A stretch of DNA of 64,000 nucleotides from Candidatus Yanofskybacteria bacterium (GCA_016185545.1 JACPNJ010000003.1:2567-66566), one strand, 5' to 3'; positions 9,124 through 49,280 are shown, numbered from the stretch's first letter. Notes: generated by a model not told the origin, from the letters alone. Numbers and translations are program-made.

Positions 9124-9164
9124 TGTTCGCTTCTCAAAAAATTTCTCGCTCTCATCACACCTCC

Positions 9165-9583: not shown

Positions 9584-9607
9584 TTAAAAAAGTATCAACA
9601 ATTTCGT

Positions 9608-9636
9608 TTGACACACGCTGTTCCGGTTTGCTATAC
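9608..9636 (+). promoter_or_regulatory. consensus sigma70-like promoter TTGACA-17-TATACT driving a small RNA
   Basis: tttgacacacgctgttccggtttgctatact seen directly. Confidence 0.6.
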
Positions 9637-9642
9637 TAAAAC

Positions 9643-9718
9643 TAGGTGATAATCCTGAATCTCGCATTATGTTGAGATTGGGCAATTGCTCCGCGCAAGC
9701 GGAGCTTTTGTTTGGTAA
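9643..9718 (+). ncRNA. candidate about 75-nt small RNA L (ctaggtgataatcctgaatct...gctccgcgcaagcggagcttttg), followed by a second hairpin at 9724-9745
   Basis: Promoter immediately upstream and an intrinsic-terminator-like hairpin plus U-run at the 3' end. Its 5' region is complementary to atcaggattatcacc in the left terminal inverted repeat. Confidence 0.45.
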
Positions 9719-9810
9719 AATAAAGCCCACCTTGCGGTGGGCTACCAGCTTAGAGGATGCTGGACTTAGACTTAGGAGGAGGGCTGGCGGGAAATGCGCG
9801 GGCAGAATGG

Positions 9811-20523: not shown

Positions 20524-20745
20524 ATGAATTTTGCGGATTTCTTTTACTATAACGGGGCATTACTGATCCTACTCACAGCTATTAGCCTGTCTATCTGGGG
20601 CATATATGTTGTTACCAAATCTAAACGAGCAATAAAAAGAATCATCGGTTGGCTGGTAATTATCGTCTGTGTGCCATATTCACTATTGAGCTTCTATTAT
20701 TATTTAGAAACTGTCCTGAGACCTTGGCTCCATAGTATTCTCTGA
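20524..20745 (+). CDS. small 73-aa protein, two predicted transmembrane helices with basic loop (KSKRAIKR); same architecture as 18314-18514
   Basis: ORF track; good RBS; opposite strand to the rRNA. Confidence 0.45.
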   Translation: MNFADFFYYNGALLILLTAISLSIWGIYVVTKSKRAIKRIIGWLVIIVCVPYSLLSFYYYLETVLRPWLHSIL

Positions 20746-20809
20746 ATAACACTACATCCAATTTTCAAGTCGCGTCTTCATGGACCGACTTTTTTATTTA
20801 GAGTTTGGC

Positions 20810-20965
20810 TGAATAATGCCTTATAGCACCGTCAAAATTGTGTGATTGCATGGTCGGCGAGCAGTATAATAGTAAAGCACTGCGAGGTGAATCCACGCTT
20901 TCAACGGAGCGACGCAACCTCGCTGGGGTTGCTAGCGGTGATAGAAGATATTATTCAGCCAGACT
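20810..20965 (-). repeat. repeat element C copy 2 (flanked by ggctgaataat / attattcagcc)
   Basis: See 9165-9320. Confidence 0.6.
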
Positions 20966-21119
20966 CAAGCTAAACTCAAGTCCAAAAATTTGAGCGGGTA
21001 ATACGCGCTTTTAACACTCGGTTTCCCTACGACTCCGTGCTCTCGCACTTAGTCTACAGCTTGTAAAAACTCGTTGGATCATTCTTCAATAGGCACACCG
21101 TCGCACTACGCTACCGCTT

Positions 21120-21250
21120 CGTGCTCCGAAATCAAAAGTTAAAATGCAAAAGTCAAAATTATAGATGTTCTGAAATTTTGCTAGCAAAATTTCAGAACTC
21201 CACACTTTTGAACTTTGATTTTTGAATTTTGAATTTCGAGACGAACACGA
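21120..21250 (-). repeat. hairpin element family B copy 2 (caaaagttaaaatgcaaaagtcaaaattatagatgttctgaaattttgctagcaaaatttcagaactcc...) in 23S helix-25 region
   Basis: Aligns to 19020-19140 by eye. Confidence 0.55.
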
Positions 21251-21315
21251 AGCGATAGCGAGTGTTCCGGCTCTTTGTAGGCATATGGTTTCAGTTCTAT
21301 TTCACTCCCCTCACC

Positions 21316-21349
<34 letters not shown>

Positions 21350-21444
21350 TCACTATCGATCACCAAAAGTATTTAGTCTTGGACCGTAGTAGGCCCGGAT
21401 TCGCCACGGATAGTCTGCTCCATGGGTACTTAGGGTAGGAGCTC

Positions 21445-21605
21445 ACCTTAAAATTATCTTTCTACTGCAGTTTAATAATTTTGGCTGCGACTTCGTCAGA
21501 TTTCACAAAATGTCCTCGCCGTAGTATAAACTACGCCTCCGGTGATTTTGTTCATCTTCCTCGTCTCGCCAGAAATTATTAAATTTCGCAACGAAAATAA
21601 CTTTA
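21445..21605 (-). repeat. about 160-nt 23S insertion bounded by gagctcaccttaaa / tttaaggtgagctc inverted repeats
   Basis: Inverted repeat seen directly. Confidence 0.45.
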
Positions 21606-21959
21606 AGGTGAGCTCATAATATGAAAAGTTTGATCGTTTTCGCTTAAGGGACTATCACCCGCTTTGGTCGGCCTTTCCAGGACCGTTCGGCTAACAATCA
21701 AATTTGTAACTTTTTTCCAAAACACAACTGAAGACCGCGAACGATCCTCGGCTGTGCTTAGAGTATATTATCCCTGCAACCCTTACCTATTATTAGTAAA
21801 CTAACAAAAGATAAGTTTAGACTGTGCCCCTTTCGCTCGCCGCTACTTAGGGTATGTTTGCGCCTTGCGGCGCATTTGTTTTATTTTCCTCTGGCTACTG
21901 AGATGTTTCACTTCGCCAGGTATGCATCTAGTAGCTAGTTTCTGGTAACTAGTTGCTAG

Positions 21960-22313
21960 TTATTTAAAACTCTTGATAAGATTAAATAACTGCTTACCGC
22001 AGATAGTATATTCACTGATCAAATTTTCATGGTCAGTTTCGCTGATTAACCCAGCATCCTTCATAAAGTTGAGATTAAACAGAACCTCGTCATTAGAACC
22101 CAGCGCATCGTTCAAAAAATTAACTTTATCTTTGGTAGACTTATTTCTACCAAATCCCTCCGCGATATTTGATGGTATTGATCTTGAAGCTCTTCTAATT
22201 TGATCGCAAAGATCATATTTAAGTTCTTTTGGAAGTTTCATAGACAACTGGTGAACTTTTAACGCCAACTTGTAGGACCGATTATATACGTCAAGGTCTT
22301 TATACGAATTCAT
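21960..22313 (-). CDS. four-helix-bundle 23S rRNA intervening-sequence protein (TIGR02436-like), encoded within the helix-9 intervening sequence (21941-22356), which is closed by CTAG-rich inverted repeats
   Basis: ORF track: MNSYKDLDVYNRSYKLALKVHQL...RRASRSIPSNIAEGFGR; insertion lies between GGAAATC...CCCATGCCGGGTAATACC and GAAGTGAAACATCTC (helix 9, the classical intervening-sequence site). Confidence 0.8.
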   Translation of the reverse strand: MNSYKDLDVYNRSYKLALKVHQLSMKLPKELKYDLCDQIRRASRSIPSNIAEGFGRNKSTKDKVNFLNDALGSNDEVLFNLNFMKDAGLISETDHENLISEYTICGKQLFNLIKSFK

Positions 22314-23271
22314 AAAAATTTACCAGAAACTAGAAACCAGAAACCAGCTACTAGATATGCCGGTATTACCCGGCATGGGTTTCCCCATTCGGAAATCTCC
22401 GGATCAAAGCCTGCTAGACGGCTCCCCGAAGCATATCGTCGTCACGCCACGTCCTTCGTCGCCTTTTGGTGTCAAGGCATCCTCCATACGCCCTTATATT
22501 CCTTACAAGATTAAATCTGCAATCATTAGATTGCACCCTTCGTAGCTCTGCGAAGCTTTAGCGTAGCAGAGCGAAGTAGGGCCTCATTTAATCTTCTTGA
22601 TGCTTCAAAACTGGCAACTCTTGAACTCGGAAAGTTAGAGAACAACCAGAAAATGCAAAGCATCATTTTATTTTTAATCCCGTTAGAGGTAGGTTGCCGC
22701 CTATGGCAACCGCAAGCTCTAATCGGGATACCCGCTAACTATTCATTTTTTAAATTGCAATCTATTCAATCAGTTTAGTGTTAGCTTCCGTCGGGCACCA
22801 CCTCGATAAACAAGGTGACGCCCGACGACAGCCAATTTATTGATGAAACCCCAGCACCAATTTTGCAAAGTCTAATAACGGCAGGGCGCTTCGCCCATTG
22901 CAGAATATGCCCATTCGGCACGCGCACCCTGCAAAATCTTGGCTAACGTATCATATTTATTTAGCAACTACCAACTAAATTAGGCAAAATGGTGCGGGGT
23001 TATTTTTTGTTTCCATGCTCACTATCGCTGCGCTTGGACAAAAAATAAATCCCGCCAAGCGGGACGTTTTCGGGCACAAATTAACACCAAGACGTCATCC
23101 GCTTTTTTGTAATGCTTTGTTTAATTTTTTCATCCCGTACGAGACAGGATAAGCCTTGCGGCTTATCCGTATCTTATTATATTATATCTACCTTATTAAT
23201 CCCGATTAGATAGCTACTCTAACTTTATTTACTAGCAAAGGCTGTCTCGTTCGGGATTCATCATCAAAATC

Positions 23272-36709: not shown

Positions 36710-38299
36710 TTAAATGACAATCTCGTGCGCGCGCAACATCATCCGTATTTTTTCAATATCCGGCTGAAGGGGGCGGTCATTGGCGAGGTACCGGACTTGG
36801 CTGCGGATTTGCTCATAGATTTCTTTTGTTTTTGGAGCAAGAGTTTTTCGCGCTTTTCCAGCTCCGCCATTCCGCTTATCCACGGCTTGCGTAAGAATAA
36901 TTAATGTTGCGGCAAGAAGTCTCCTATACTCTTCGTTAAGTTCAAGTGCGCGTTCTGCTGATGCAAACCCGAAGCTTACCACATCCTGATTATTTGATTC
37001 GGTGGCCCGGCGGTGAATACTCATGGGACCCGCAAGAAAACAAATTTTTCCGAAAACATCCGTGGTGCCGATATCAACACCCTTGAAACCGCTATTAAAC
37101 CCGGGCTGTGTCCCCGCAAGACTCGCGCCCAATTTGCGGTTATATTTCTCATTGAGCAAACGCGATTTCAGGGCATGCAAGAGGTCGGCAATATTGAACA
37201 TGGCAAGCTTTAAAATATCCATTCCCAGCGCTACGTAGAAACCTGAAAAATTACCGGTATGATGCACTTTCATTTGTTTGAGATCGGTAATGGGATTGTC
37301 ATTAGCCGAGTTCATTTCCCGGGTAATCCATGGGCGAACGACTTTTTCTACAAGTTCTAATGTGGGACCTAAAATTTGAGGCGCGCAGCGGATGGAATAA
37401 GGATCTTGCAGCTCTATATCGGTTTCTTTTACGTGTTTGGAGTCTTTAGCAATCCAGGAAACTTTAGCCCGAAGTTCGTCAATATCTTTAGTCAAACTGC
37501 TGCCACGGAGGCAATCATTTAAAACGTGTGCCGCATAACTTTGCCCTTGATGGTTTTTCACCTTGTGGACAAATTCATCAAGATGGTCGGTCATGCCTTC
37601 CAGCGCTTCAGTGGCTAACGCCTCGCAAAATATCGAAAGCGTTAAAAGATACTCCGCGTCATAAACCGCAAGCGCCGCCATTGCGGTTGAAACCGATGTG
37701 CCATTGACGATTGACAGACCCTCTTTTTCTTCCAAGACAAGGGGACTGATTTTTAATTGGCTGAATACCTTGGCTGTTTTTCGTATCCGTCCTTTATGCC
37801 AAACCCCGCCCTTTCCCTGAATAACCTGGGCGATAGAAGCAAGTGGTACCAGATCGCCACTGGCACAGACCGAACCGTCCTCATACATAACCGGAATTAC
37901 ATCTTCATTAAGAAGTTGTATTATTTTTTGAATTTTATCCAAACCGATAGCGGAACAACCGTCTTTAACAAGCGAATTGACACGCAATAACATTGCGCCC
38001 CTGGAAATCTCTGGTGATAATTCTCTGCCTATACCGCAGGAAAGTGAATCTATAAGCCGTGGCTGAAATGCTTTGCGTTTTTCTTTTGGAATAATTTTGC
38101 CCACATTCGCGCCAACTCCCATGCCATCACCGTAGGCAAGTATTCCGCTTTCCAGATAAAACCGCCTGCTTTCCTCTATAAGCCGCAGGATTTGCGGGTC
38201 GTCAGTAAGAACAGTAAAAACCTTGCGCTGTGCGACTCCGGCAACATCCTTAATGGTCAAGTTGTTTCCGTCAACAATTACTTCTTCCGGAAAATTCAT
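36710..38299 (-). CDS. aromatic amino acid ammonia-lyase / aminomutase family enzyme (HAL/PAL/TAL, MIO cofactor Ala-Ser-Gly)
   Basis: GSVCASGDLVPLASIA (MIO-forming ASG triad) and NQDVVSFG motif; 529 aa. Confidence 0.75.
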   Translation of the reverse strand: MNFPEEVIVDGNNLTIKDVAGVAQRKVFTVLTDDPQILRLIEESRRFYLESGILAYGDGMGVGANVGKIIPKEKRKAFQPRLIDSLSCGIGRELSPEISRGAMLLRVNSLVKDGCSAIGLDKIQKIIQLLNEDVIPVMYEDGSVCASGDLVPLASIAQVIQGKGGVWHKGRIRKTAKVFSQLKISPLVLEEKEGLSIVNGTSVSTAMAALAVYDAEYLLTLSIFCEALATEALEGMTDHLDEFVHKVKNHQGQSYAAHVLNDCLRGSSLTKDIDELRAKVSWIAKDSKHVKETDIELQDPYSIRCAPQILGPTLELVEKVVRPWITREMNSANDNPITDLKQMKVHHTGNFSGFYVALGMDILKLAMFNIADLLHALKSRLLNEKYNRKLGASLAGTQPGFNSGFKGVDIGTTDVFGKICFLAGPMSIHRRATESNNQDVVSFGFASAERALELNEEYRRLLAATLIILTQAVDKRNGGAGKARKTLAPKTKEIYEQIRSQVRYLANDRPLQPDIEKIRMMLRAHEIVI

Positions 38300-39813
38300 A
38301 AAGCCTCCGATTTTCGCAGTTCTTTTTTGAGAATCTTACCAGTGGGCGTTTTGGGAATTTGTTCAACAAATCTCACTCCGCCCAGCCGATAATAGCCGGG
38401 AAATTTATTTTCCACCGCATTTATAATTTCCGCTTCGGCGGGCGCGGGACTACCGGCCACTAGATACGCAAACGGCATTTCACCCTTTTCCTTATCCGGC
38501 ACGCCGATAATGCCAACGTCTTTTATCCGTTCCCCAAAATGAGTATTGATGAACTTCTCCATTTCTCGCGGCCAAACGGAGAATCCACTGACTTTAATCC
38601 GGTCGTTTTTCCGGTCAACAATTCTTAAATACCCCGCCCCGTCAATTATTCCAATATCGCCGGTAAAAAACCAGCCGTTTCGTATCGCCTCGCGTGTCGT
38701 TTCGGTATCGTCAAAATACCCTTGGAATACATTTGGTCCTCTTACAATTATCTCACCGGTTTCGCCGGAGCCAAGTTTTATGCCACCCTCATCAACGATT
38801 CCGATTTCCACGCCATTAATCGGCGTACCCACGCTTCCGGGAACATAGCGGGTTTCATGATTGTACGTGGCAAACGGAGAGGTTTCGGTAAGTCCCCAAC
38901 CTTCCCAGATTTGCCGGCCGTATTTTCCAATCCATGCCAGCGCTATTTCTTCAGGCATAGTGTCTGCCGCGGTAAAAAAGTACCGGACGGTTTCAAATGG
39001 TCTTATGTCCTTAAGATTAAGAAGCGCCCGGTAATTCGGCGGAATAGAGAAAAACATCGTAACAGAATTCAAAACCAATGATTCCAATATCTCATTGGGC
39101 ATAAACCGCTTGTGCAAAATGAGCGTGCCCAGCGCGTTAAAAATCGCGTTCATTACAAAATTTTGGCCGAAGCAATGGAACAATGGAAGAAAACACATTA
39201 CACGGTCATAGTTCCGCATGCCTGTATATCTCCGCACGGCTTGGATGTTGGAAACGACATTGCCGTGCGAAAGTATAGCGCCTTTTTGTTCTCCCGTCGT
39301 GCCGGAAGTATAAAGAATAAACGCCGGATCGTCCGGCTGGAGTTCGCATTTCGGAGGAACGATATCATGATTCAACATTTCCCAAAGATTTAGACATTGC
39401 TTTGAAGGAGAGTCTCCTATCACCACGATTTTCTCAAGATTGCACGCGCTCAAAGCGAATGACGCTTCGCCCCAAAGCTCCTCGCAAGTAACCAATACTT
39501 TCACCCTTGAACGCTCTATGTATTTGCCAACCCCCTCGCTTTTCAAGGCAGAACTTAAAAGTACGGGAACGGCTCCGATGCGCAACGCGCCATAGGTAAC
39601 TATCGGATATTCCAACATATTGGGAAGAAAAACCGCCACTCTGTCCCCCTTTTTCACGCCCAGTCGGGCCAAACCACCGCTAAATCTCTCTGCGTAACCG
39701 AAAAGTTGCCTATAGTTTAGCGTATAAAAATTACCGCTGGCTTCCTGAAAACGTAACGCGTCTTTTGCCGGATAATGTTTTACGGCCCGCTCTAAAACAT
39801 CAAAAAGGTTCAT
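38296..39813 (-). CDS. AMP-dependent acyl-CoA / aryl-CoA ligase (adenylate-forming enzyme)
   Basis: YTSGTTGEQKG, GWGLTE, GDIG..DGAGYLRIVDRKND motifs; 4-bp overlap with the ammonia-lyase gene. Confidence 0.8.
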   Translation of the reverse strand: MNLFDVLERAVKHYPAKDALRFQEASGNFYTLNYRQLFGYAERFSGGLARLGVKKGDRVAVFLPNMLEYPIVTYGALRIGAVPVLLSSALKSEGVGKYIERSRVKVLVTCEELWGEASFALSACNLEKIVVIGDSPSKQCLNLWEMLNHDIVPPKCELQPDDPAFILYTSGTTGEQKGAILSHGNVVSNIQAVRRYTGMRNYDRVMCFLPLFHCFGQNFVMNAIFNALGTLILHKRFMPNEILESLVLNSVTMFFSIPPNYRALLNLKDIRPFETVRYFFTAADTMPEEIALAWIGKYGRQIWEGWGLTETSPFATYNHETRYVPGSVGTPINGVEIGIVDEGGIKLGSGETGEIIVRGPNVFQGYFDDTETTREAIRNGWFFTGDIGIIDGAGYLRIVDRKNDRIKVSGFSVWPREMEKFINTHFGERIKDVGIIGVPDKEKGEMPFAYLVAGSPAPAEAEIINAVENKFPGYYRLGGVRFVEQIPKTPTGKILKKELRKSEAL

Positions 39814-39863
39814 GGAAAAACCTCCTGAATTATTTGTAAAAGTTCAAGAATTTCAAGGTCAAG

Positions 39864-40685
39864 CTATCTCTTTTTTACTTCCCAGTCAAGATGCATTTTG
39901 GGAAGCATCATCTCCGGCCGCCAGGTTTTTTTGAGTTCATTTATGTTTTGAGAAAGCTGGTATTTGCCGCCCTCGCCGACATAGTCAAGTGTTTTCACCC
40001 CGTTAGAAGTAGCCTCGCCGAGGTCCTTCGGACTCGTCCCGTTAGAGAGCGTGAACGCCCTAGACTTGCCGTCAATCACATTTTTCTTATCTTGCCTAGA
40101 CTCTCTAACGGGACGAGCGAGACTTCTAACGGGGTGAACCGTAAGCGGAGCAACTTCATAAAATACCATCTGTGCGATACGTCTGCTGACGACAAGAGGA
40201 ATAGTATAGTGTTTGGAATTGTTTGTAACCTCCATCGTCCAACGGTTAAAATAGCCCACATCTCCCCAGCCGGCATCCTTGCACACTTCAATAAAATTGC
40301 GCCCCAAAGAAGACCGCGCGTACATTTTGGCCACGCAAATATCGCGTCCACCTATGAATTCCTGCGTGTGCGCCAAAATTGTTTCGCCTGGAGCAAGAAG
40401 AATCACTCGTGCTTTGTTGGGAATGTTTTTAAATTCTGCGGCAAGACGTTTGCTGATGACACCGGCTGGCTCGGCGCGGAACGGCCCCTGCCAGACGTTG
40501 CTTGTTGAACTGGCATCGTAAATATTGTGGATGGTCGCCCGGCCAGCTGGATGACCTTCGCGCCAAAACCACTCGCCCAGAGTTACGTCATAGCTTGTTG
40601 TTTTGAGCTGTTTTTTATTGAACGGCTCAATCACAATTGTTCCCTGTCGTAAATGATTTAAAATTTTATTTTGCGATAAAAGCAT
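39864..40685 (-). CDS. dcd: dCTP deaminase/dUTPase-fold protein with about 90-aa C-terminal extension
   Basis: SYDVTLGEWF, LAPGETILAHTQE, DAGWGDVGYFNRWTMEVTN match Dcd blocks. Confidence 0.65.
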   Translation of the reverse strand: MLLSQNKILNHLRQGTIVIEPFNKKQLKTTSYDVTLGEWFWREGHPAGRATIHNIYDASSTSNVWQGPFRAEPAGVISKRLAAEFKNIPNKARVILLAPGETILAHTQEFIGGRDICVAKMYARSSLGRNFIEVCKDAGWGDVGYFNRWTMEVTNNSKHYTIPLVVSRRIAQMVFYEVAPLTVHPVRSLARPVRESRQDKKNVIDGKSRAFTLSNGTSPKDLGEATSNGVKTLDYVGEGGKYQLSQNINELKKTWRPEMMLPKMHLDWEVKKR

Positions 40686-40717
40686 GGGTTTAAGAGATTA
40701 ACTTTGTCGGAAATATT

Positions 40718-40898
40718 AAACTTTGCTCTAACTTATTTTACCGAAAAACTCTGAAAGAGGAAAGCGGCACGCCATAGACGTGCCGCACTGTCTCTAAAAA
40801 TCACTCAGACGGCTCGGCATTCCTCCCCCCAACCCCTTCCTGCCGAGCCGTCCTCGCTAGTGAGGGATATTTTTGATTGGACGGAGTTAGATTTCGGG
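40718..40898 (+). repeat. IR-A (181 bp), inverted partner at 43523-43703
   Basis: RC of 43523-43703 is nearly identical (aaactttgctctaacttattttaccgaaaaactctgaaagaggaaagcggcacgcc...gattggacggagttagatttcggg). Confidence 0.8.
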
Positions 40899-41130
40899 CC
40901 TTTATTTATCACTGTTTTTATGTTAAAGTTTTTACATTGACAACTTGATTGCCTAACCCTCGTGGCTTGTCTGCGAGATATGGCACAAAAAATCCCATCC
41001 CTGATACCGAACCCCTCGTTCAGCGACTCAGGGATGGGTCATACTCGAAAGGGTATGTGGACCGAGAGGTCCTACGCTAGCAGGGGGCTTTGTGTTCCCG
41101 CAAGCGGCATAGGTTTTACCCATCCCTACT

Positions 41131-42246
41131 ATGCCCCCAAAATTACAAACCGCAGATAAAGTTCTGGTCTCTATAATAATTCCCGTCTATAACGAAGAAA
41201 GATTTGTTGCCAAAGTTATTGAACGAGTGCTGGAGGCTGATTTAGGCTTTTCTAATACACATAAAGAAATTGTAGTAGTCAACGACGGTTCATCCGATAA
41301 TACCTTTAGTGAGATATCTAAATTTGAGAATTCAATTAAGATAGTAAGTCTTGATAAAAATCAGGGCAAAGGGACAGCTCTAAGAAAAGGGTTTGCAATA
41401 GCAAATGGCGATATTCTTCTCATTCAAGATGCTGATTTTGAATATGATCCAAAAGATTATCATGAACTTTTAAAACCGATTATTGAAAATAAGGCCGACG
41501 TTGTTTACGGCTCGCGTTTTATCGGCGGTCAATCTCACAGAGTTTTATTTTTTTGGCACTACCTGGCAAATTTATTCCTTACTTTATTAAGCAACATGTT
41601 CTCCAATCTTAATCTTACTGATATGGAGACAGGATACAAAGCATTTCGAAAAGAAGCAATTAATTCCATATCTCTAAAAGAAACCCGATTTGGATTTGAA
41701 CCGGAAGTGACTATTAAACTTGCCCAGCAAGGTTGGAAATTTTATGAGATTGGAATTTCTTACAATGGAAGAAGTTATGCCGAGGGAAAGAAAATATCTT
41801 GGATAGATGCGGCCAGAGCTCTGTTTGTAATTTTTAAATATGGCCTCAACAAGCAAGCTGTTGCTATCATACTGATTGCTATACTTTTAATCTCTGGGTC
41901 ATTGGGTGTATCAAAAGATATAATTAGATTTTTCAAACAAATCCCACCTGCTTTATCTCAAGAATTACCAGGACAAAAATTTACTCCACTCATTAGTTAT
42001 GTTGCTAATAAAAAAGAGGTTGGATTTTTAGACAATAACGAACAGCAAGAGTATTTAAAAGATTTTTATCAGGCTCAAAATATATTAGCCCCCGTAATTA
42101 TTAAAGAAGGTTCCGAGTCAGAATTTATTATTGTTTCAAATTACAGACCATCGTCTATAAACGAACTCAAAACAAAATTAAACGCAGAAGTAATCGCCGA
42201 ATTTCATCAAGGGTCCATTTACTTACTGCAAAAAAATGGCTACTAG
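41131..42246 (+). CDS. family-2 glycosyltransferase (dolichol-phosphate mannosyltransferase-like) with C-terminal extension
   Basis: IIIPVYNEE...VVVNDGSSD...IQDADFEYDP GT2 motifs. Confidence 0.8.
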   Translation: MPPKLQTADKVLVSIIIPVYNEERFVAKVIERVLEADLGFSNTHKEIVVVNDGSSDNTFSEISKFENSIKIVSLDKNQGKGTALRKGFAIANGDILLIQDADFEYDPKDYHELLKPIIENKADVVYGSRFIGGQSHRVLFFWHYLANLFLTLLSNMFSNLNLTDMETGYKAFRKEAINSISLKETRFGFEPEVTIKLAQQGWKFYEIGISYNGRSYAEGKKISWIDAARALFVIFKYGLNKQAVAIILIAILLISGSLGVSKDIIRFFKQIPPALSQELPGQKFTPLISYVANKKEVGFLDNNEQQEYLKDFYQAQNILAPVIIKEGSESEFIIVSNYRPSSINELKTKLNAEVIAEFHQGSIYLLQKNGY

Positions 42247-43534
42247 CATTTATTTTTTATCTGTTGCACTGGTTGGGTATTTATCTTCCAGATTGACGGA
42301 AAAGTATAAATCTCACTTTGCACATATCATTCCGTTGGGACTTGGTATCACGGGATTATTTTATTTTTGGGATATTTTAATCTGGAATAAATTTAATCTC
42401 GCCGGTTTTATAATTTTTGTATTATTTTTTGCGCTATTGACAGTTTTGTTCTTGAGGATTAAAAAGATCAGAATTATTACTCCTATAGAATTCAATCTTC
42501 TAGATTTAATTATTCTCGGGCTACTTTTGTTAGTAGCTTTACAGCAAATTTATGGATATTGGGATGCATGGGCAATTTGGAACACTAAGGCTAAATTTTT
42601 GACGTCCGAAAACTGGCAACAACTATTTTCTCCACAGATTAAATGGATGCACCCCGATTATCCACTACTACTCCCTTCAATTGTAGCGGCTGGCTGGTCG
42701 GTCTCTAACACTTTTAACCCGGTTGTTCCATTCGTAGTCGCTTTACTTTTTTCTTGGTCTATCTACCTACTCGTAAAAGATTGGATTTCTCACTTATTTA
42801 ATAACAGCGTTTACGGAGTTTTAGGTGGTTTGTTAATGATATCTTTACCAGCGTTTCTTCGTTGGAGTGGCAGTCAATATGCCGATATACCATTAGCAAA
42901 TTTTATTTTATTGGGTGTCACTCTTTTATATTTCAGTACAAAAAATTTATCAGTTTTTATAAGTGGCTCTGCTTTTGGTATGGCTATATTTACAAAAAAT
43001 GAGGGATTACTTTATTTTGTTTTGATTTTAGCGAGTTTTATATATACATTTTGGAGAATAAATAAAAAAATACCGTTTAAATCAGTAATGCTATTGCTTG
43101 GCGGTGCACTTCCTGGGATTCTATCTTCTCTGGTCGTGAAAAATTATGCGACAAGAAACGAATTTATAACCAACTTTCCCAATATAATTTCTTCAATATC
43201 TTTCCATAGAATTTTCTTAATTCTCGAAGGATTCTTACGTGAATTTTTAGCTTGGAAAGAATGGATTGTATTTTGGATTATAGCAATTATTTTTCTTGTT
43301 TTTCTGCATAAACGAGAAAAAGAACATTATTTTTGGAACACGTTTTTTACCGTATTGATTGTTTTGTGTTTTGTTTCTTTTTTCTTTATTTATCTTGTTA
43401 CACCGCAAGATGTTGTCTGGCATATTCAAACTTCATTCAACAGGCTACTGATCCAAATTTTTCCGTTGGTAATAGTATCTATTTTTATCAGATTAAGACA
43501 TCTTAAGATCAAGCAGGCTTTTCCCGAAATCTAA
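42236..43534 (+). CDS. GT-C fold membrane glycosyltransferase (ArnT / PMT-like, about 11 transmembrane helices); 3' end lies inside IR-A'
   Basis: Polytopic; overlaps the GT2 gene by 11 nt. Confidence 0.6.
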   Translation: MATSIYFLSVALVGYLSSRLTEKYKSHFAHIIPLGLGITGLFYFWDILIWNKFNLAGFIIFVLFFALLTVLFLRIKKIRIITPIEFNLLDLIILGLLLLVALQQIYGYWDAWAIWNTKAKFLTSENWQQLFSPQIKWMHPDYPLLLPSIVAAGWSVSNTFNPVVPFVVALLFSWSIYLLVKDWISHLFNNSVYGVLGGLLMISLPAFLRWSGSQYADIPLANFILLGVTLLYFSTKNLSVFISGSAFGMAIFTKNEGLLYFVLILASFIYTFWRINKKIPFKSVMLLLGGALPGILSSLVVKNYATRNEFITNFPNIISSISFHRIFLILEGFLREFLAWKEWIVFWIIAIIFLVFLHKREKEHYFWNTFFTVLIVLCFVSFFFIYLVTPQDVVWHIQTSFNRLLIQIFPLVIVSIFIRLRHLKIKQAFPEI

Positions 43535-43703
43535 CTCCGTCCAATCAAAAAATATCCTTTACCGACGAGGACGGCTCGGCAGGAAGGGGTTGGGGGGAGG
43601 AATGCCGAGCCGTCTGAGTGATTTTTAGAGACAGTGCGGCACGTCTATGGCGTGCCGCTTTCCTCTTTCAGAGTTTTTCGGTAAAATAAGTTAGAGCAAA
43701 GTT
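43523..43703 (+). repeat. IR-A' (inverted copy of IR-A)
   Basis: See IR-A. Confidence 0.8.
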
Positions 43704-43711
43704 TAGAATCG

Positions 43712-43852
43712 TCGACAAAAAGATACTTTCGGATTCGGAGACAGAAAAATCAGGTCGCGCCAAAGGCGCGAATGGAATGGTGGGGGCGCATCCCGCGAGG
43801 CGGGACGCAAGAAAACCAGATGGTGGAATGAATGAAAAAGAAAGGGAGCGGT
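43712..43852 (+). repeat. IR-B (141 bp), perfect inverted partner at 45216-45357
   Basis: RC of 45216-45357 is identical by eye (aaaaagatactttcggattcggagacagaaaaatcaggtcgcgccaaaggcgcgaatggaatggtgggggcgcatcccgcgagg...). The two reading frames across the two copies give the same peptide (DRSLSFSFIPPSGFLASRLAGCAPTIPFAPLARPDFSVSESESIFL). Confidence 0.85.
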
Positions 43853-43892
43853 CTACGCTAGAAAATCTACTGAAGATGAGGAACGGCAAGTT

Positions 43893-45446
43893 ATGAGTAT
43901 TGAAGCGCAACTTGCTGAACTCAAGGAATACGCCAAGCGAGAAAATATTTTGATTTCCGAAACTTTTATTGAATCAAAAAGCGCAAAGAAACCAGGACGA
44001 GAAGTTTTTAATGAAATGATGGCTAAGGTGGAATCATCTAGAGAACCTGTTGGCCTTCTCGCCTGGCACCCTGATCGTCTTGCCAGAAACTCTATTGATG
44101 GCGGTCAAATAATCTACTCCATAGATCAAAGTAAAATTGTTTCTTTGCGCTTCCCTACTTTTTGGTTCGAACCAACTCCTCAAGGATTATTTATGCTTCA
44201 AGTGGCGTTTGGACAATCTAAATATTATTCGGATAATCTTTCCGAAAATGTTAAGCGCGGTATCCGCCAAAAACTTCGTCGCGGAGAATGGCTTACTAAA
44301 GCACCTTTTGGATATTTGAATAACCCCAAGACAAGGACAATAGAACCGCACCCCACGCTTTCAAAAATCCTCGTCAAAGCATTTGAAGCATACGCAACGG
44401 GAAAATATACCTTAGAAAGTTTGGGAAGGTTTTTGGCGGAATATGGTATTGAATCAAAGAACCGAACGCCACTTTCTAAAGCTAATATCAAAAGAATTCT
44501 CACTAACCAAGCATATCTCGGTCTTATCGCCCATAAAGGAGAATATTTTGAGGGCAAATTCCAACCAATTCTCAACCGCGCAACATTTGAAGCCGTGCAA
44601 GAAGTATTACAACAAAGAGCCAAGCCAAGAAAGACAAAGCAAGGTCATAATTTCCCGTTTACAGGCTTAATGACTTGCGGAGAATGTAATTCTCAAATAA
44701 CCGCTCAATGGACTAAAGGAAAATCAGGAGGAATATATCGCTATTATCGTTGTACTAAAAAACGAGGTGCTTGTTCACAAAAATATATCCAAGAAAAAGA
44801 CCTCGTCATACAAATTAAGACACGGCTTCAATCTGTTGCGCTTCCCGATACTCATACAGATTGGATGCTCAAGAAAGTTGATGAGTGGGACAAAGATAAA
44901 ACTAACAAAACAGCATCGTCCGTCCAAAATATCAAATTCAAAATTGTTGAAACGCAAGAGAAACTAGATAAACTTGTTTCCGCCTACATGGACGGCGATA
45001 TTCCAAAAGAAAGTTATCTCACCAAGAAAGAAGATTTACTCAAAATCAAAGTTTCTCTTGTCGAACAGAAAACGAAACCGAACCAGAAAAATCCGCTCGA
45101 ACCCTTGCGCCAATGGGTTTTAGACACGAAAAAAGCCAGTTTCCTAGCTTCTTCCGAAAACTATCACGAAATGAAGCAGATTATCCAAAAGATCGGAACG
45201 AACCCCAAACTTTCAGACCGCTCCCTTTCTTTTTCATTCATTCCACCATCTGGTTTTCTTGCGTCCCGCCTCGCGGGATGCGCCCCCACCATTCCATTCG
45301 CGCCTTTGGCGCGACCTGATTTTTCTGTCTCCGAATCCGAAAGTATCTTTTTGTGTCTCATCGTCCCGAACGATGCATGTTGCCGATACACTACAGCCCG
45401 TTTTCGCTCGCAAAAACGAGTTACTCAACATAATATTTCTTTTTAA
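43893..45446 (+). CDS. large serine recombinase (resolvase/invertase catalytic domain, recombinase domain, zinc ribbon); its C-terminal about 75 aa are encoded by IR-B'
   Basis: LAWHPDRLARNSIDGGQIIYSI (Ser-recombinase active-site region), CGECNS...YRYYRC zinc ribbon. Confidence 0.85.
   Translation: MSIEAQLAELKEYAKRENILISETFIESKSAKKPGREVFNEMMAKVESSREPVGLLAWHPDRLARNSIDGGQIIYSIDQSKIVSLRFPTFWFEPTPQGLFMLQVAFGQSKYYSDNLSENVKRGIRQKLRRGEWLTKAPFGYLNNPKTRTIEPHPTLSKILVKAFEAYATGKYTLESLGRFLAEYGIESKNRTPLSKANIKRILTNQAYLGLIAHKGEYFEGKFQPILNRATFEAVQEVLQQRAKPRKTKQGHNFPFTGLMTCGECNSQITAQWTKGKSGGIYRYYRCTKKRGACSQKYIQEKDLVIQIKTRLQSVALPDTHTDWMLKKVDEWDKDKTNKTASSVQNIKFKIVETQEKLDKLVSAYMDGDIPKESYLTKKEDLLKIKVSLVEQKTKPNQKNPLEPLRQWVLDTKKASFLASSENYHEMKQIIQKIGTNPKLSDRSLSFSFIPPSGFLASRLAGCAPTIPFAPLARPDFSVSESESIFLCLIVPNDACCRYTTARFRSQKRVTQHNISF
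45216..45357 (+). repeat. IR-B'
   Basis: See IR-B. Confidence 0.85.
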
Positions 45447-46899
45447 TCTCACCTACCTTTTTTTGTTCTTCTTCGGAAATTTTAATTTTTCCCATCTTCC
45501 CAAGTTCAATTAATTCCGACTCGTTAAGCGCGTTTAATTCCTTAGCGCGGTTTTCAAGATATTCACGCGTATTCTTGCTTGGGTCATCCAGCACTTCATT
45601 CATTAGGGCATGTATTATCATGCCGACGCGCGGGCTTTGTTTTAAGCCGGCGATCCGCATTACGTCTTCGCCTTTTAACGCCAGCATTTTGGGTGAAACC
45701 GGATCGCGGGCAACCTTGTCTATCATAAACTGCATATGGCGCAGTTTATACGGCTTGGCTTTGGGCACGCCGGAACCGATTCTGTCGGCCTCGCGTACTT
45801 TAATTAAATCCTCCACATTTTCTTTGCCAATATTGGCCACCAGTCGCCTAACCGACGACTCGGTAACCTCGCCGACATTATAGTAAAAAAGGTGATAGCG
45901 CACCAGCTTGATTATTTTTTCCGCTTGTTTCTGCGGAAAACGCATACGATCCATAATTTGAGCCGTCATCCGCGCTCCAATTATCTCATGGGCGTAAAAG
46001 GTGGAATCCGGCCCCTCGCCTCTTTTGCTTCTCGGCTTACCAACATCGTGGAGCAGTGACGCCAAGCGCACTTCCAGCGAATAATTTTTATCGCAAGCAT
46101 AACGAAGTGCGCGTAGATTGTGCTCCCAAACAGTATAAATGTGATGCTTGTTTTGGGTAACACCAAATCCTTCCAACATTTCGGGTAATACGTATTTAAT
46201 CAGCTCTGTTTCTCGCAAAAGCTCCATGCCTTTATCGGCATCGGCTGAATTTATAATTTTAACCAGTTCATCGCGTATCCGCTCTTTGGATATCGCCGCT
46301 ATTAAGCCATGATTTTTTTTAATGGCCCTAAACGTTTCAGTGTCAATGTTAAACCTAAGAGTAGCGGCAAATCTCACCGCTCTTATCATCCGTAAAGCGT
46401 CTTCGTTGAAACGCTCTTCGGGTTTTCCGACTGCTCGGATAAGTTTATTTTTTATATATTCCTGCCCGTCAAAAATATCGGTAATCTCACCACTCCCACT
46501 CATCGCCAGCGCGTTGATAGTAAAATCACGCCTTTTCAAATCCTCCTCCAACTTATCGGCGAACTTTATTCGGTCGGGATGTCTTTTGTCAGTATATTTG
46601 GACTCAATGCGATAGGTGGTAATCTCAACAACTTGCAAGGTTTGATCCTCGCTTCCGGTTTTGATGCCAACGGTTCCGAATTTATTTTCGTAAAAACTAT
46701 CCGGGAAAAGTTTTTGGATTTCTTCTGGCTTGGCATTAGTGGTTACGTCCCAATCGTTTGGCTTTTCACCCATGAGCAAATGCCTTACGCTCCCGCCGAC
46801 AATATAGGCCTCGTAACCTTCCGATGATAGCTTTGTTAAAATATCACTGACCTCTCTCGGTAATTTTGAATTTTGAATTTTGAATTTTGAATTTTGCAC
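45421..46899 (-). CDS. cca: CCA-adding enzyme / tRNA nucleotidyltransferase with HD domain; N-terminus encoded by GAATTTT heptamer repeats (the ORF track's ATG 46917 would overlap tRNA-Arg; a GTG at 46899 is more plausible)
   Basis: EAYIVGGSVRHLLMGEKPNDWDVTT and HD motif LLHDVGKP. Confidence 0.8.
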   Translation of the reverse strand: MQNSKFKIQNSKLPREVSDILTKLSSEGYEAYIVGGSVRHLLMGEKPNDWDVTTNAKPEEIQKLFPDSFYENKFGTVGIKTGSEDQTLQVVEITTYRIESKYTDKRHPDRIKFADKLEEDLKRRDFTINALAMSGSGEITDIFDGQEYIKNKLIRAVGKPEERFNEDALRMIRAVRFAATLRFNIDTETFRAIKKNHGLIAAISKERIRDELVKIINSADADKGMELLRETELIKYVLPEMLEGFGVTQNKHHIYTVWEHNLRALRYACDKNYSLEVRLASLLHDVGKPRSKRGEGPDSTFYAHEIIGARMTAQIMDRMRFPQKQAEKIIKLVRYHLFYYNVGEVTESSVRRLVANIGKENVEDLIKVREADRIGSGVPKAKPYKLRHMQFMIDKVARDPVSPKMLALKGEDVMRIAGLKQSPRVGMIIHALMNEVLDDPSKNTREYLENRAKELNALNESELIELGKMGKIKISEEEQKKVGEIKKKYYVE

Positions 46900-46908
46900 T
46901 TTTGGTTG

Positions 46909-46981
46909 TGCCCCCACCAGGACTTGAACCTGGATCGCCTCGTTAGGAGTGAGGTACTCTATCCAGTTGAGCTATGAGGGC
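46909..46981 (-). tRNA. tRNA-Arg (anticodon CCT)
   Basis: RC gccctcatagctcaactggatagagtacctcactCCTaacgaggcgatccaggttcaagtcctggtgggggca; one A-C mismatch in the anticodon stem. Confidence 0.7.
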
Positions 46982-47037
46982 GTTTAATTATCCTTGTAAT
47001 CTTAACATTTTTATGGTATTTTTACAATTGAAATAGC

Positions 47038-47111
47038 GGGCCCGTAGCTCAGCTGGTTAGAGCGCTTCGATGGCATCGAAGAGGTCGCCCGTTCGAATCG
47101 GGTCGGGTCCA
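47038..47111 (+). tRNA. tRNA-Ala (anticodon GGC)
   Basis: gggcccgtagctcagctggttagagcgcttcgatGGCatcgaagaggtcgcccgttcgaatcgggtcgggtcca; G3:U70. Confidence 0.85.
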
Positions 47112-47160
47112 CAATCCAAAATTTTGCAAAATTTAGAATTTACGACATGGGCATAAATTT
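47110..47160 (+). repeat. 51-bp direct repeat copy 1 (cacaatccaaaattttgcaaaatttagaatttacgacatgggcataaattt), starting at the tRNA-Ala 3' end
   Basis: Identical copy at 48798-48848. Confidence 0.85.
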
Positions 47161-47247
47161 TGAGTTGACAAAGTAGTATTGCTAAAGTTTGCAGGGAGTA
47201 AACTATAAGCAAACAAGGTCTAAAAAATTAAAATTAACTATAAAATT

Positions 47248-47625
47248 ATGCTAAAAACTATAATAAAGTCGGCGATGTTTTCTGCGATAACTCTTGGTTT
47301 GATGTTGGTCGCAAATCAAGTCGCTTTCGCCGCGGCTAAATGTACCGTCAATGGTCGTGAAGTTGATTGTGCGGAGTTAGGCAATAAAGTTAAAGGTTTT
47401 TTGGGCTGGGGAATCGGTAGCTTTTTTGTCATCTTCGCTCTTGGAATTTGGGCGATAGTGTTTTGGATAATGATGATTGTTCACGCCGCCCAACATGATG
47501 TCGAAAATAAAGCGATGTGGATAATTTTAATGGTGTTTACCGGCGTTATCGGTGCATTAATTTACTACTTCGTGGTAAAACGAAAATTCGGTAAGCGGTT
47601 TTCGCCGTCAACCCCGATGAGATAA
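47248..47625 (+). CDS. hypothetical membrane protein (125 aa)
   Basis: ORF track; 3 transmembrane helices. Confidence 0.5.
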   Translation: MLKTIIKSAMFSAITLGLMLVANQVAFAAAKCTVNGREVDCAELGNKVKGFLGWGIGSFFVIFALGIWAIVFWIMMIVHAAQHDVENKAMWIILMVFTGVIGALIYYFVVKRKFGKRFSPSTPMR

Positions 47626-47626
47626 T

Positions 47627-48796
47627 ATGCCTGATAAATTTACAGATGTAACTACAACTGGATACGGTGGACGGATAGTCAACTCGATAAAAGGAGTAGT
47701 AATCGGCCTTATTCTCTTTGTCGTTTCGTTCGGCTTACTTTATTGGAACGAAGGACGAGTTGATTTATCCAATATAGCAAAAACTGCTACCGAAATAAGT
47801 TCGGCGACAGTTAGTACCGATTCAACACTTAGTGGAAAACTTATTTCGACAACCGGAAATGCAAACTCCGATCAAATTATCGGAGATAATTTATTTTTGA
47901 ATCCGGATAAATTTATCGCAGCAAAGCGCGAAGTGGAAATGTATTCGTGGATAGAAAAATCGGAATCCCACAACAAAACAAATACTGGCGGTTCGGAAAC
48001 AACCGAAACGACTTATACTTACTCAAAAGATTGGACAGAAAATCCAAAATCTTCAAGTAATTTCAAACACCCAGAAGGACACGAAAACCCGCAGAAAAGT
48101 TTGGATAGCTACACCAACAAGGTTACCACCGCGATAATCGGGGTTTACAACTTTGACCCCAAAAGTGTGGCACTTCCAAACTTTTCTCAACTTCCGCTCA
48201 ATTCTCAAAATGTAACTTTGAATGACGGCGCGACTTTGGCAAACGACAGTTATATTTTTATCAAAAAAAGTGAGAACGGAACATTTGACAGTCCTCAAAT
48301 TGGCGACTTGCGCATAAGCTATCATGTCTTGCGTCTCGGATTTGACGGAACAATTTTTGGTAAATTGAGCGGAAGTAAAATTGAGCCTTACTTTGACCAA
48401 GACGGAAATAATCTTTACAGATTGTTTATAGGCACACGTGACCAAGCGATTTCCACACTTCACACAGAATACACGACTCTCCTTTGGATTTTACGGCTTG
48501 TTGGATTTTTGCTGATGTGGTTTGGGCTCTCCGCCTTATTTGGTCCAATTAGTGTTTTATTGGACATCTTGCCAATTTTTGGAACAATAAGTCGTTCGGT
48601 AATTGGCATGATAACTTTTTTAGTTGCGCTCGTGCTCACAATTGTAACAATTCTTGTTTCAATGATTGCGCATAATCTTATTGCGCTTATTATCACTTTA
48701 GTCATAACTGTCGGAACTATTATTACTTTCTTTGTGATGATGAAAAACAAGAAAAAAGCGAGTGGCGGGGTGGAGCGTTCAAATTTCATCCAATAA
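47627..48796 (+). CDS. hypothetical membrane protein (389 aa; N-terminal transmembrane helix, C-terminal polytopic)
   Basis: ORF track; 1-bp gap to the upstream gene. Confidence 0.5.
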   Translation: MPDKFTDVTTTGYGGRIVNSIKGVVIGLILFVVSFGLLYWNEGRVDLSNIAKTATEISSATVSTDSTLSGKLISTTGNANSDQIIGDNLFLNPDKFIAAKREVEMYSWIEKSESHNKTNTGGSETTETTYTYSKDWTENPKSSSNFKHPEGHENPQKSLDSYTNKVTTAIIGVYNFDPKSVALPNFSQLPLNSQNVTLNDGATLANDSYIFIKKSENGTFDSPQIGDLRISYHVLRLGFDGTIFGKLSGSKIEPYFDQDGNNLYRLFIGTRDQAISTLHTEYTTLLWILRLVGFLLMWFGLSALFGPISVLLDILPIFGTISRSVIGMITFLVALVLTIVTILVSMIAHNLIALIITLVITVGTIITFFVMMKNKKKASGGVERSNFIQ

Positions 48797-48797
48797 A

Positions 48798-48848
48798 TAC
48801 CACAATCCAAAATTTTGCAAAATTTAGAATTTACGACATGGGCATAAA
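48798..48848 (+). repeat. 51-bp direct repeat copy 2
   Basis: See copy 1. Confidence 0.85.
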
Positions 48849-49280
48849 TTTGTGGTTTTGTCGGAAAGTTTTGATTACTGACATCGTTGACACATCAATG
48901 TTCAGCGCGGAACAAAAAAGAATACAAAAACTGCGGCTTGGCTGGTTTGAGCATACCCAAGAAAAAACATACAATATTGCCAAAACTTGCCGTTATTATG
49001 GAATTTCAAGACAAACCTATTACAAATGGCTGTGGAGATACAATTCGCTTGGAAAAAAAGGTTTAGTTAACCAATCTAAAAGACCTCTTAATACCCCCCC
49101 CCCACAAATCCAAAAATACGAAAAATCACAAAGAGTTTGCGCTTGTGCCACCACTGGGGTGGCACTAGAATAAAACGCTGGCTTAAAACGCGCCATGATA
49201 TTAATATTAGTTCATCAACTATATATAAAATCCTCAAAAAATATGGGATTAACCGATTATCATTATTAAAGAAAAATTGA
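48838..49280 (+). pseudogene. IS481/IS3-like transposase N-terminal (HTH) remnant, frameshifted at a C9 homopolymer (about 49095-49104), DDE domain missing
   Basis: TYNIAKTCRYYGISRQTYYKWLWRY HTH; after the poly-C tract another frame continues RWLKTRHDINISSSTIYKILKKYGINRL. Confidence 0.6.

Follow-up and report, generated by a model that had tools for sequence, protein, structure and literature searches.

Serine recombinases drive several kinds of DNA rearrangement, and the described systems closest to the locus reported here are the phage serine-integrase elements and the staphylococcal cassette chromosome (SCC) elements. Canonical large serine recombinases (LSRs) require a directionality factor for excision, and the targeting of tRNA 3' ends is typical of tyrosine integrases, not of serine integrases. 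In LSRs, a coiled-coil motif set into the zinc ribbon governs the pairing of sites. DNA invertases are small serine recombinases that use sites of ~26 bp and an enhancer to invert a promoter or alternative ends of genes. Elements moved by serine transposases lack long terminal or internal inverted repeats and are not specific for tRNA genes, and the enzymes of the IS607 type are small. Patescibacteria have tiny genomes in which few mobile elements have been characterized. Here we report a computational analysis of a locus at positions 40703-45354 of a 64,000-nt stretch of DNA from Candidatus Yanofskybacteria bacterium (GCA_016185545.1, JACPNJ010000003.1:2567-66566), the whole of which is called the window below. 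In this locus, two nested pairs of long inverted repeats enclose two glycosyltransferase genes and an LSR gene. The initial annotation, made from the window alone, had proposed a phase-variation switch for surface glycosylation or, alternatively, a serine-recombinase mobile element, and comparative data show the alternative to be right in kind.

We conclude that the locus is probably, with a probability of roughly 0.78, an integrated and now degenerate copy of a small LSR-driven integrative element, which belongs to a very large family in the Patescibacteria (candidate phyla radiation, CPR). This reading draws on the repeats, the architecture of the family, the logic of the junctions, the concerted evolution of the repeat arms and the lesions in the window copy. 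In the literature searched, which leaves most subscription journals outside its coverage, no description of this family was found, and it is apparently an undescribed, widespread variant of the serine-integrase elements.

Nested inverted repeats in the window and in related loci

A repeat search of positions 38000-48000 detected the first inverted repeat, IR-A, as two collinear pieces, 40703-40874 with 43548-43719 (172 nt, 94% identity) and 40870-40898 with 43523-43551 (29 nt, 100%), which together are a single repeat of ~197 nt split by a 1-nt indel and ~95% identical overall; by BLAST, it is 183 nt long at 96.7% identity. A 45-nt piece of IR-A occurs just twice in the window, in the IR-A arms, with 0 occurrences expected from 100 shuffles. 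The second repeat, IR-B, pairs 43715-43854 with 45215-45354 over 140 nt at 100% identity. Both pairs had been recognized in the initial annotation, which delimited IR-A as 40718-40898 and 43523-43703, the inner part of the repeat described here, and placed the perfect copies of IR-B 1-3 nt off. It had also named a failure of the repeats to align as a ground for abandoning its proposal, and the computed repeats do align.

IR-A and IR-B overlap by 5 nt (43715-43719), and therefore the middle block 43523-43854 is the contiguous reverse complement of 45215-45354 joined to 40703-40898. The two outer repeat copies thus represent the halves of this block in circular permutation, and the structure is best understood from this relation. 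The left arm of IR-A (40703-40898, plus strand) is named P, or the P' arm, and the right arm of IR-B (45215-45354, plus strand) is named Q; their inverted counterparts on the minus strand are the right arm of IR-A (43523-43719, found by both repeat search and BLAST) and the left arm of IR-B (43715-43854), the latter lying directly 5' of the recombinase frame. The outer ~35-60 nt of P' are conserved in the family, TAAACTTTGCTCTAAC in the window corresponding to the family motif CTTTGCGCGAAC, and the inner part is cargo-specific.

The open reading frame (ORF) at 43893-45446 carries the Resolvase PF00239 (E 9e-18), Recombinase PF07508 (E 2e-13) and Zn_ribbon_recom PF13408 (E 6e-11) domains, the domain set of an LSR, as had been supposed from the sequence. 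A conserved stretch of ~110 aa separates the zinc ribbon from the C-terminal tail. Q overlaps the 3' part of this gene and encodes recombinase residues ~442-487, i.e., ~47 codons beginning 77 codons before the stop, in place of the ~75 aa first attributed to it. Its first ~25 codons are conserved at the protein level in homologues down to 60% identity, and its end would form the P-type half of the attR junction described below. The small antisense ORF 43668-43910 repeats the same recombinase peptide, as the initial annotation had noticed. On paper, an inversion between the IR-B arms would also keep the recombinase ORF intact, as it had suggested, and would alter just the last ~20-30 residues after the shared peptide.

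Relatives of the recombinase are abundant, with >6600 matches, the best 120 of which all have E < 1e-195; at least 593 are in the genome collection and at least 577 in the metagenome collection. Our survey comprised 166 loci, 80 from species-representative genomes, 80 from metagenomes and several obtained via exact protein look-up. An IR-B surrounds the homologous LSR gene in 142 of the 166 loci, and the 119 arm pairs uncut by a contig end have a median length of 128 nt, 51 of them being 100% identical and 83 at least 98% identical. At 124 of the 146 loci with enough downstream DNA, the outer arm abuts a tRNA gene of the opposite strand at its 3' end, with an overlap of a few bases. The target tRNAs represent 13 amino-acid types, the commonest being Glu (40 loci), Pro (20), Ser (19), Ala (17) and Arg (11). 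An IR-A of 100-320 nt was found around cargo of 1.1-8.3 kb at 40 of the 59 loci with >3 kb of upstream sequence, and across the family its near arm overlaps IR-B by 3-9 nt. At locus L084, an IR-A of 321 nt (100%) and an IR-B of 144 nt (99.3%) adjoin a tRNA-Pro gene. The same layout is present in L071 (OY970382), L073 (CP060229) and L092 (CP129473), which are chromosome-titled or hundreds-of-kb records and are taken here as complete or near-complete genomes. Since the same architecture recurs across the surveyed loci, the nested repeats are the norm of the family and not an assembly artefact.

Two metagenome-assembled genomes (MAGs) contributed two loci each (L043 with L053, and L039 with L070). 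Moreover, tRNA genes listed as free in L079 (position 13376) and L113 (position 4236) are followed by Q-end-like sequence, which indicates second element copies in those genomes.

Logic of the probable attachment sites, evidence for mobility and lesions of the window copy

In three-way comparisons of junctions at 13 loci, the right junction consists of the Q end, a core and the tRNA, and the internal junction consists of the Q end, the core and P'. The far-left junction has a unique flank followed by a core of 3-7 nt and by P', which is identical to the near P' for 100-320 nt. The end junctions are hybrids that share only the short core, as in LSR-type integrative elements. They fit the pattern expected if a Q|P' site of the element (attP-like) recombined with a flank|tRNA site of the host (attB-like) to give flank|P' (attL) and Q|tRNA (attR). 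The family consensus derived from 90 loci reads gAAGTttc..tTTGTG for the Q end and tg.atT..tAaccTTtgc.cgAaC for the P' start, which together form an imperfect dyad. A YGAAY motif is found on the tRNA side at +13, within the T loop, in 76 of these loci, and on the P' side at +19 in 52 loci and at +18 in 20. This spacing matches the rule for serine integrases, where the distal zinc-ribbon motif in attB is shifted 5 bp inward relative to attP (PMC3783163), and YGAAY is a plausible contact motif for the recombinase protein. The ending of the core covaries with the tRNA, being GTCG for Pro, GTGG for Ala, GTGA for Glu, GCGG for Ser and GTGC for Arg and Gly. Occupied tRNA ends are always followed by the Q end, in contrast to the free tRNAs of the same loci.

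From these junctions we infer a scheme of integration. The attP-like site would be composed of the terminal bases of the recombinase gene (the Q end) and the conserved flank (P'). The recombinase would join this Q|P' site with a tRNA gene at its 3' end; the T arm would serve as the B' half-site, and the 3-7 nt core would overlap the final bases of the tRNA. The products would be attL (flank|P') and attR (Q|tRNA), and the integrated layout would read attL – cargo – inverted intact P'|Q – recombinase – attR. Two adjacent inverted-repeat pairs would result because the element keeps a second, inverted and intact Q|P' between cargo and recombinase, the P' arms (IR-A) bracketing the cargo and the Q arms (IR-B) bracketing the recombinase gene. 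The free form would be a circular intermediate in which two inverted Q|P' copies separate recombinase from cargo, and integration would proceed through one of them by attP x attB recombination. In the window, the target would be the tRNA-Pro(CGG) gene upstream of the CCA-adding enzyme gene (cca), and the cargo comprises a LOOT RNA, a GT2 glycosyltransferase gene and a GT-C-like gene.

The window junctions can be followed base by base. The attL-type junction has the core TTTGTCG at 40703-40709 (plus strand), with unique flank to its left and the P' arm from 40710. The same core precedes P' at the internal junction (43713-43719, minus strand), and only TTTGT is left at the right junction (45350-45354). 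An intact attP-like site lies internally at 43690-43740 (minus strand), where the Q end and the P' start form the imperfect palindrome GAAAGT-N22-ACTTTG centred on GTCGAC at 43711-43716. To the right of Q, positions 45355-45400 (minus strand) hold a remnant of tRNA-Pro(CGG) with the acceptor 5' strand, the D arm and the anticodon arm, representing a damaged attR. L087, L089 and L021 have an intact tRNA-Pro in this position, and alignment with them shows that the remnant has lost 25 nt, comprising the T arm and the acceptor 3' strand, with a gap that starts precisely at the Q end. ARAGORN called no tRNA at 45355-45400, and the genome may depend on another tRNA-Pro for CCG codons.

The recombinase gene is likewise damaged. 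Its remnant occupies 43836-45446 (plus strand), the frame being open from 43836, after a TGA codon at 43833-43835. The catalytic motif YARKST is encoded at 43854-43871, and the first ATG after the TGA is at 43893, past the catalytic serine. Read from its stop codon, the frame gives KRKGAVYARKST with no start codon before 43893; homologues begin with M(T/K)KYFLYARKST. Alignment with L003 and L088 shows that the window lacks ~33 nt including the recombinase ATG, and that this deletion starts precisely at the inner edge of the left IR-B arm. A translatable product that includes the catalytic serine (Y-A-R-x-S-T) is present in homologues and absent from the window. An upstream 'MKKKG' was considered as the true start, separated by a frameshift, and rejected, as in relatives it is merely translated repeat and the real start lies within the missing 33 nt. 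Both this late ORF start and the truncated tRNA-Pro beyond IR-B had been overlooked in the initial annotation, as had the LOOT RNA.

In the window, IR-A has diverged further than it has in the majority of relatives, and the two P' copies differ in their first 7 nt. Within the window, IR-B has 0 differences in 140 nt compared with a drift of 3-6% in IR-A; if both had drifted equally, the Poisson probability of finding no difference in IR-B would be ~0.01 to 0.0004. Because the recombinase has lost its start codon, the tRNA (attR) has lost 25 nt and IR-A has drifted to ~95%, the window copy looks immobilized, with a probable loss of activity.

Elsewhere in the family, the same insertion site is found in different states, and several comparisons speak for mobility. 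The recombinases of the window and L087 are 84% identical, compared with 54% for the adjacent cca genes. An element occupies the cca–tRNA-Pro(CGG) site in the window, L087, L089/L096 and L021, with the order cca–tRNA-Pro–recombinase; the cargo differs in L087 and L089, and L005 has the site without an element. Both states of the site thus exist among distant genomes, and since their cca products are 50-58% identical, this is not a strain-level polymorphism. The cargos of relatives include restriction-modification genes, methylases, ResIII helicases, AAA_15/AbiEii-like ATPases and a PLD nuclease, as well as radical SAM enzymes, a symporter and other transporters, and many unknowns. No phage or conjugation genes were seen among the cargos looked at. 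As the same nested repeats surround unrelated cargo, they belong to the vehicle and not to a control of glycosylation. Scanning IMG/VR with the recombinase alignment recovered no relative, and a reading of the enzyme as a phage integrase was dropped on this ground. In L092 (4582-6634, within the 692-kb chromosome-scale record CP129473), the cargo includes a tRNA-Arg(TCT), a reverse transcriptase (RVT_1), a DNA methylase and a helix-turn-helix protein.

Several loci bear on the traffic of modules. In L097, a tandem array at 6500-11554 contains an older, fragmented recombinase, Q'|P', a two-gene cargo and an internal site that lacks its central 57 nt, and continues with an intact second recombinase and then an intact Q|P' again. 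The last Q|P' junction is not a fold-back, because the upstream copy in the contig lacks the central 57 nt. The array suggests successive insertions at the tRNA-proximal end, with decay of older copies. The Q+P' blocks of L140 (1495-1741) and L022 (9727-9973) are 98.8% identical over 247 nt, compared with <94% for the recombinase bodies, which suggests that the site-bearing repeat has been exchanged between elements. Recombinase and Q are 87-92% identical between elements with unrelated cargo and unrelated inner P'. Contigs in which the recombinase is followed by Q|P' exist (L097, L111, L112, L122 and L140) and were considered as excised circles. This was rejected because L132 proved to be L133 folded back exactly, and L097 holds a tandem array; such contigs are therefore no evidence for circles. 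In L087 (3417-4280), an NYN-domain gene (3579-4115) lies between the inverted Q arm and the recombinase start, and the IR-B arms are 86% identical; the recombinase module can therefore acquire an extra gene.

Orientation of the modules and the role of the second inverted site

The recombinase module is directed toward the tRNA in 124 of the 146 informative loci and is flipped in four short contigs (L091, L142, L143 and L156), where the tRNA lies upstream and is co-directional, Q|P' lies downstream, and three different tRNAs are involved. These four contigs could be assembly mis-traversals of the repeat, since perfect inverted repeats longer than the k-mer make inverted-path contigs possible. 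In L111, L112, L122 and L140, Q|P' follows the recombinase and the left side is not covered. Homologous cargo in opposite orientation was not found between loci. With 124 loci in one orientation, inversion is therefore at best rare or transient.

The arms show concerted evolution. The window and L093 differ at 12 positions of the 140-nt arm, and each of these differences is fixed in both arms, with 0 differences between the arms of one element; between the window and L084, 35 differences are common to both arms and 1 is between arms. A consensus scan, uncalibrated for the signals of the host, detected terminator-like hairpins in all four arms, each facing out of its own module in either orientation. 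In the left IR-A arm, the hairpin at 40764-40786 (minus strand) has a 10-bp stem with 8 GC pairs and a T-rich tail, and points out of the cargo module; the one in the right IR-A arm (43636-43658, plus strand) lies 3' of the GT-C gene. Those of IR-B are located at 43755-43771 (minus strand) in the left arm and at 45298-45314 in the right arm. Neither the P nor the Q repeats matched a known RNA in Rfam, even at a relaxed threshold. The arm data fit gene conversion, insulation, auto-regulation and real recombination alike. The extra intact inverted Q|P' site between cargo and recombinase is always present in the family and is not expected from a simple attP x attB reaction.

Several observations weigh against the interpretation of the window locus as a degenerate integrated element. 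Its left flank runs directly into the start codon of a dCTP deaminase-like gene (dcd), no tRNA 3' fragment is present there, and the tRNA is truncated, not simply split; at least one further event, a deletion, a rearrangement or the use of a pseudo-site, must therefore have taken place in the local history. The 33-nt and 25-nt deletions both begin precisely at IR-B boundaries, and an artefact of assembly or repair at the repeat edges may conceivably lie behind both. IR-B is 100% identical in an element that otherwise has the appearance of age. For the window element itself, neither an excised circle nor an empty site was seen, and the one empty cca–tRNA-Pro site found, in L005, belongs to a distant relative. 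No directionality factor was identified, and some cargos are just ~1.2 kb. Finally, two identical inverted attP sites predict both orientations, and the observed ratio of 124 to 4 needs an extra assumption, either selection or a non-equivalent second site.

That the locus is an active switch for phase variation of surface glycosylation, in which the recombinase would use the IR-A arms to invert the GT2/GT-C pair and the IR-B arms to invert its own gene, is very unlikely. Long inverted repeats do bound both segments, the recombinase gene is adjacent, its ORF survives an IR-B inversion, and the module is flipped relative to the tRNA in four contigs. Against this stand the start-less recombinase of the window, the unrelated cargo enclosed by the same repeats elsewhere, the drift and indel of IR-A beside a perfect IR-B, and the predominance of a single orientation with no case of inverted homologous cargo. 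The switch had also been thought to flip the glycosyltransferase operon relative to a promoter outside the repeats, whereas the consensus scan found no promoter-like site immediately outside IR-A, and the terminator-like hairpins face outward in both orientations. The accompanying argument that repeats so perfect imply recent or ongoing recombination holds insofar as the arms evolve in concert, but this is no proof of site-specific inversion. Simple inversion as the origin of the repeat pattern was also considered and rejected, as all three possible inversions, on paper, give the same junction types. A further reading, that the repeats are collapsed or chimeric products of assembly in a MAG, is still less credible and can be considered negligible. 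Many related contigs do break at or just beyond the repeat arms, some are evident fold-backs, and both small deletions in the window begin at IR-B boundaries; however, the architecture is found in >140 independent assemblies from various projects and assemblers, the chromosome-titled or hundreds-of-kb records included, the cargo and parts of both arms are reproduced on independent Logan contigs, and the arms match within elements yet differ between elements.

The remaining explanations concern what the second inverted site does in intact members of the family. One possibility, tentative but deserving attention, is that the repeats have no recombination role, RecA-type gene conversion keeping the arms alike and the arms acting as terminators or insulators and as an operator for self-repression of the recombinase. 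The strong concerted evolution argues for it, as do the hairpins placed to stop transcription leaving each module, a GC hairpin ~40 nt from the Q end that is conserved in many loci, and the position of the inverted Q arm, which stops 10-60 nt upstream of the recombinase start in relatives. On the other hand, terminators and operators need neither near-perfect identity over 115-320 nt nor an intact dyad at the arm junction, and the hairpins are consensus matches. Rather more doubtful is a modular cassette system, in which intact members have modules bounded by working inverted attP-like sites and the window is a dead copy. The LSR would insert at nearly any tRNA 3' end via the short core, flip its own gene, which would alternate between a silent orientation and one driven from the tRNA promoter, and swap cargo cassettes. 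In agreement with this idea, an intact palindromic Q|P' lies precisely at the junction of both repeat pairs in nearly all loci, flipped isomers occur beside three different tRNAs, recombinase and Q stay similar where cargo and inner P' are unrelated, the L140/L022 blocks are closer than their recombinase bodies, modules alternate in tandem in L097, and cargo ORFs occur on either strand (90 vs 40). Yet the flipped and fold-back contigs are short, as assemblers yield at perfect inverted repeats (L132 folding back on L133), and the orientation bias weighs against free flipping. Serine recombinases exchange strands at a 2-bp core and alone would not keep arms of 115-320 nt identical. In addition, canonical LSRs do not recombine attP with attP, attL or attR in the absence of a directionality factor (PMC3783163). 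If this idea were true, the family would represent integron-like gene shuffling that relies on another enzyme, in bacteria regarded as poor in mobile elements.

Cargo, flanking genes and comparison with known systems

The cargo of the window element begins with a LOOT RNA (Rfam RF03000) at 40950-41073 (plus strand), a full-length match with 69.5 bits against a gathering score of 46.4, which follows the left IR-A arm and lies 57 nt ahead of the GT2 start. This RNA is horizontally carried cargo. LOOT as a regular part of the element or as a leader of GT2 genes was considered and rejected, since it is absent from seven other cargos. The only other LOOT found, in L071 (20922-21041), is outside the element and has no GT2 gene after it. 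The first cargo gene (41131-42246, plus strand) encodes a GT2 glycosyltransferase of the polyprenyl-phosphate sugar transferase type (AglJ/ArnC/PpgS-like), as supported by PF00535 (E 3e-33) in agreement with the initial annotation; its NCBIfam matches to AglJ, PpgS and ArnC-like models are under the equivalog cut-offs. The second gene (42236-43534, plus strand) encodes a 432-aa polytopic membrane protein and ends 12 nt inside the right IR-A arm, in line with the earlier remark that its last codons run into the repeat. Its proposed GT-C identity is backed indirectly. The protein has no direct match in Pfam, NCBIfam (best E 0.54) or the sequences in PDB, and the label is supported because many of its homologues, at 30-52% identity, carry PF13231 or PF02366, which are PMT/ArnT-like GT-C families. 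It is probably a divergent GT-C (PMT_2/ArnT-like) glycosyltransferase. A single-sequence AlphaFold model had a mean confidence (pLDDT) of 51.6, too poor for a fold search.

An identical GT2/GT-C gene pair is present on Logan contigs from SRR12113430 and SRR12113424, both of which are 2.8 kb long, end inside the IR-A arms and are uninformative on orientation. Exact-sequence look-ups of the window recombinase, dcd and cca gave no match, and the GT-C gene alone is on record. The GC content of the cargo is 31-36%, compared with 45-50% in the dcd and cca flanks. The two glycosyltransferase genes are probably cargo that was acquired horizontally and became stranded in a dead element, and not a regulated switch.

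Both chromosomal flanks lie outside the element. On the left is dcd (39864-40685, minus strand; PF22769 DCD, E 8e-31), and on the right is cca (45421-46917, minus strand), which marks the conserved cca–tRNA-Pro insertion site. An ORF at 48838-49173 (plus strand) has a helix-turn-helix N-terminus resembling those of insertion sequence-type transposases (…YYGISRQTYYKWLWRYNSLGKKGL…) and may be a further mobile-element remnant, 2 kb from a tRNA cluster at 46908-47112. At 36710-39813 (minus strand), two ORFs overlap, one of 529 aa resembling aromatic amino-acid/histidine ammonia-lyases and one of 505 aa resembling AMP-dependent acyl-CoA ligases; judged from the translations only, this pair is metabolically unusual for a small Patescibacteria genome. 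The window also contains a 5S rRNA gene (14378-14495) and a 23S rRNA gene (17267-22508, minus strand) that spans 5.2 kb for a 2.9-kb model. Introns in 23S rRNA have been reported for CPR bacteria, and the ~2.3 kb of insertions seen here are probably introns.

The family is present in hundreds of species-level genomes, often in several copies each, and carries restriction-modification, defence-like, metabolic and glycosylation genes. Given this spread and range of cargo, the elements may serve as a principal vehicle of gene exchange among the Patescibacteria. The numerous serine integrases of the family are compact (~500 aa), their attP and attB can be taken straight from the genome sequence, and a few core bases track the tRNA target, which is of interest for integrase engineering. 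To our knowledge, the ever-present inverted second site and the concerted 115-320-nt arms, one of them coding, have no known equivalent among serine-integrase elements. They pose a clear mechanistic question and are the interesting part of the family.

Comparison with described systems helps to place these elements. DNA inversion systems, such as Hin/Gin/Cin/Pin and the invertible promoters of Bacteroides, also have a serine recombinase gene beside or inside a segment bounded by inverted repeats; however, the family described here has an LSR, repeats that are 5-10 times longer, no visible regulatory switch and one dominant orientation. The yeast 2-micron plasmid (FLP/FRT, with 599-bp inverted repeats) is an analogy of layout only, sharing with the presumed circle two long, identical inverted repeats with central sites, which would part a unique region bearing the recombinase from a second unique region. 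It differs in its tyrosine recombinase, and the elements have no replication function, their circle is itself conjectural, and flipping is for them only a possibility. Tn4451 (TnpX), Tn5397 (TndX) and IS607 are alike in having a serine recombinase, a small element, a presumed circle and no target-site duplication, and the NCBIfam match of the window recombinase to IS607 has E = 0.006.

Closer parallels are found among the phage serine integrases and SCC. Like phiC31, Bxb1, A118/LI and SPbeta integrases, the family enzymes combine the Resolvase, Recombinase and zinc ribbon domains in ~500 aa, and a dyad attP-like site lies beside the integrase gene. Short-core hybrid junctions and a host-side motif 5-6 bp nearer the centre than the element-side motif are also common to both. 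Unlike those phages, the family elements have no phage genes and no relative in IMG/VR, are only 3-10 kb in size, use many tRNA 3' ends as targets and possess a second, inverted attP-like copy with no directionality factor identified. Like SCCmec/SCC (CcrAB or CcrC), they are LSR-driven cassettes that lack transfer genes, insert at the 3' end of a conserved housekeeping gene, carry accessory cargo that varies, and build up tandem arrays through successive insertions into one site, as in L097. The best NCBIfam matches of the recombinase include CcrA (71.5 bits, cut-off 700), CcrB (63.9, cut-off 900) and CcrC (47.9, cut-off 900), scores so far under the cut-offs that it is not a Ccr orthologue. 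In contrast to SCC, the target is a tRNA gene and not rlmH, there is one recombinase and not a pair, the hosts are Patescibacteria, and the short terminal repeats are replaced by nested, nearly perfect inverted repeats of 115-320 nt. In lifestyle, the family most resembles the SCC cassettes, and its enzyme and site logic are those of a serine-integrase element.

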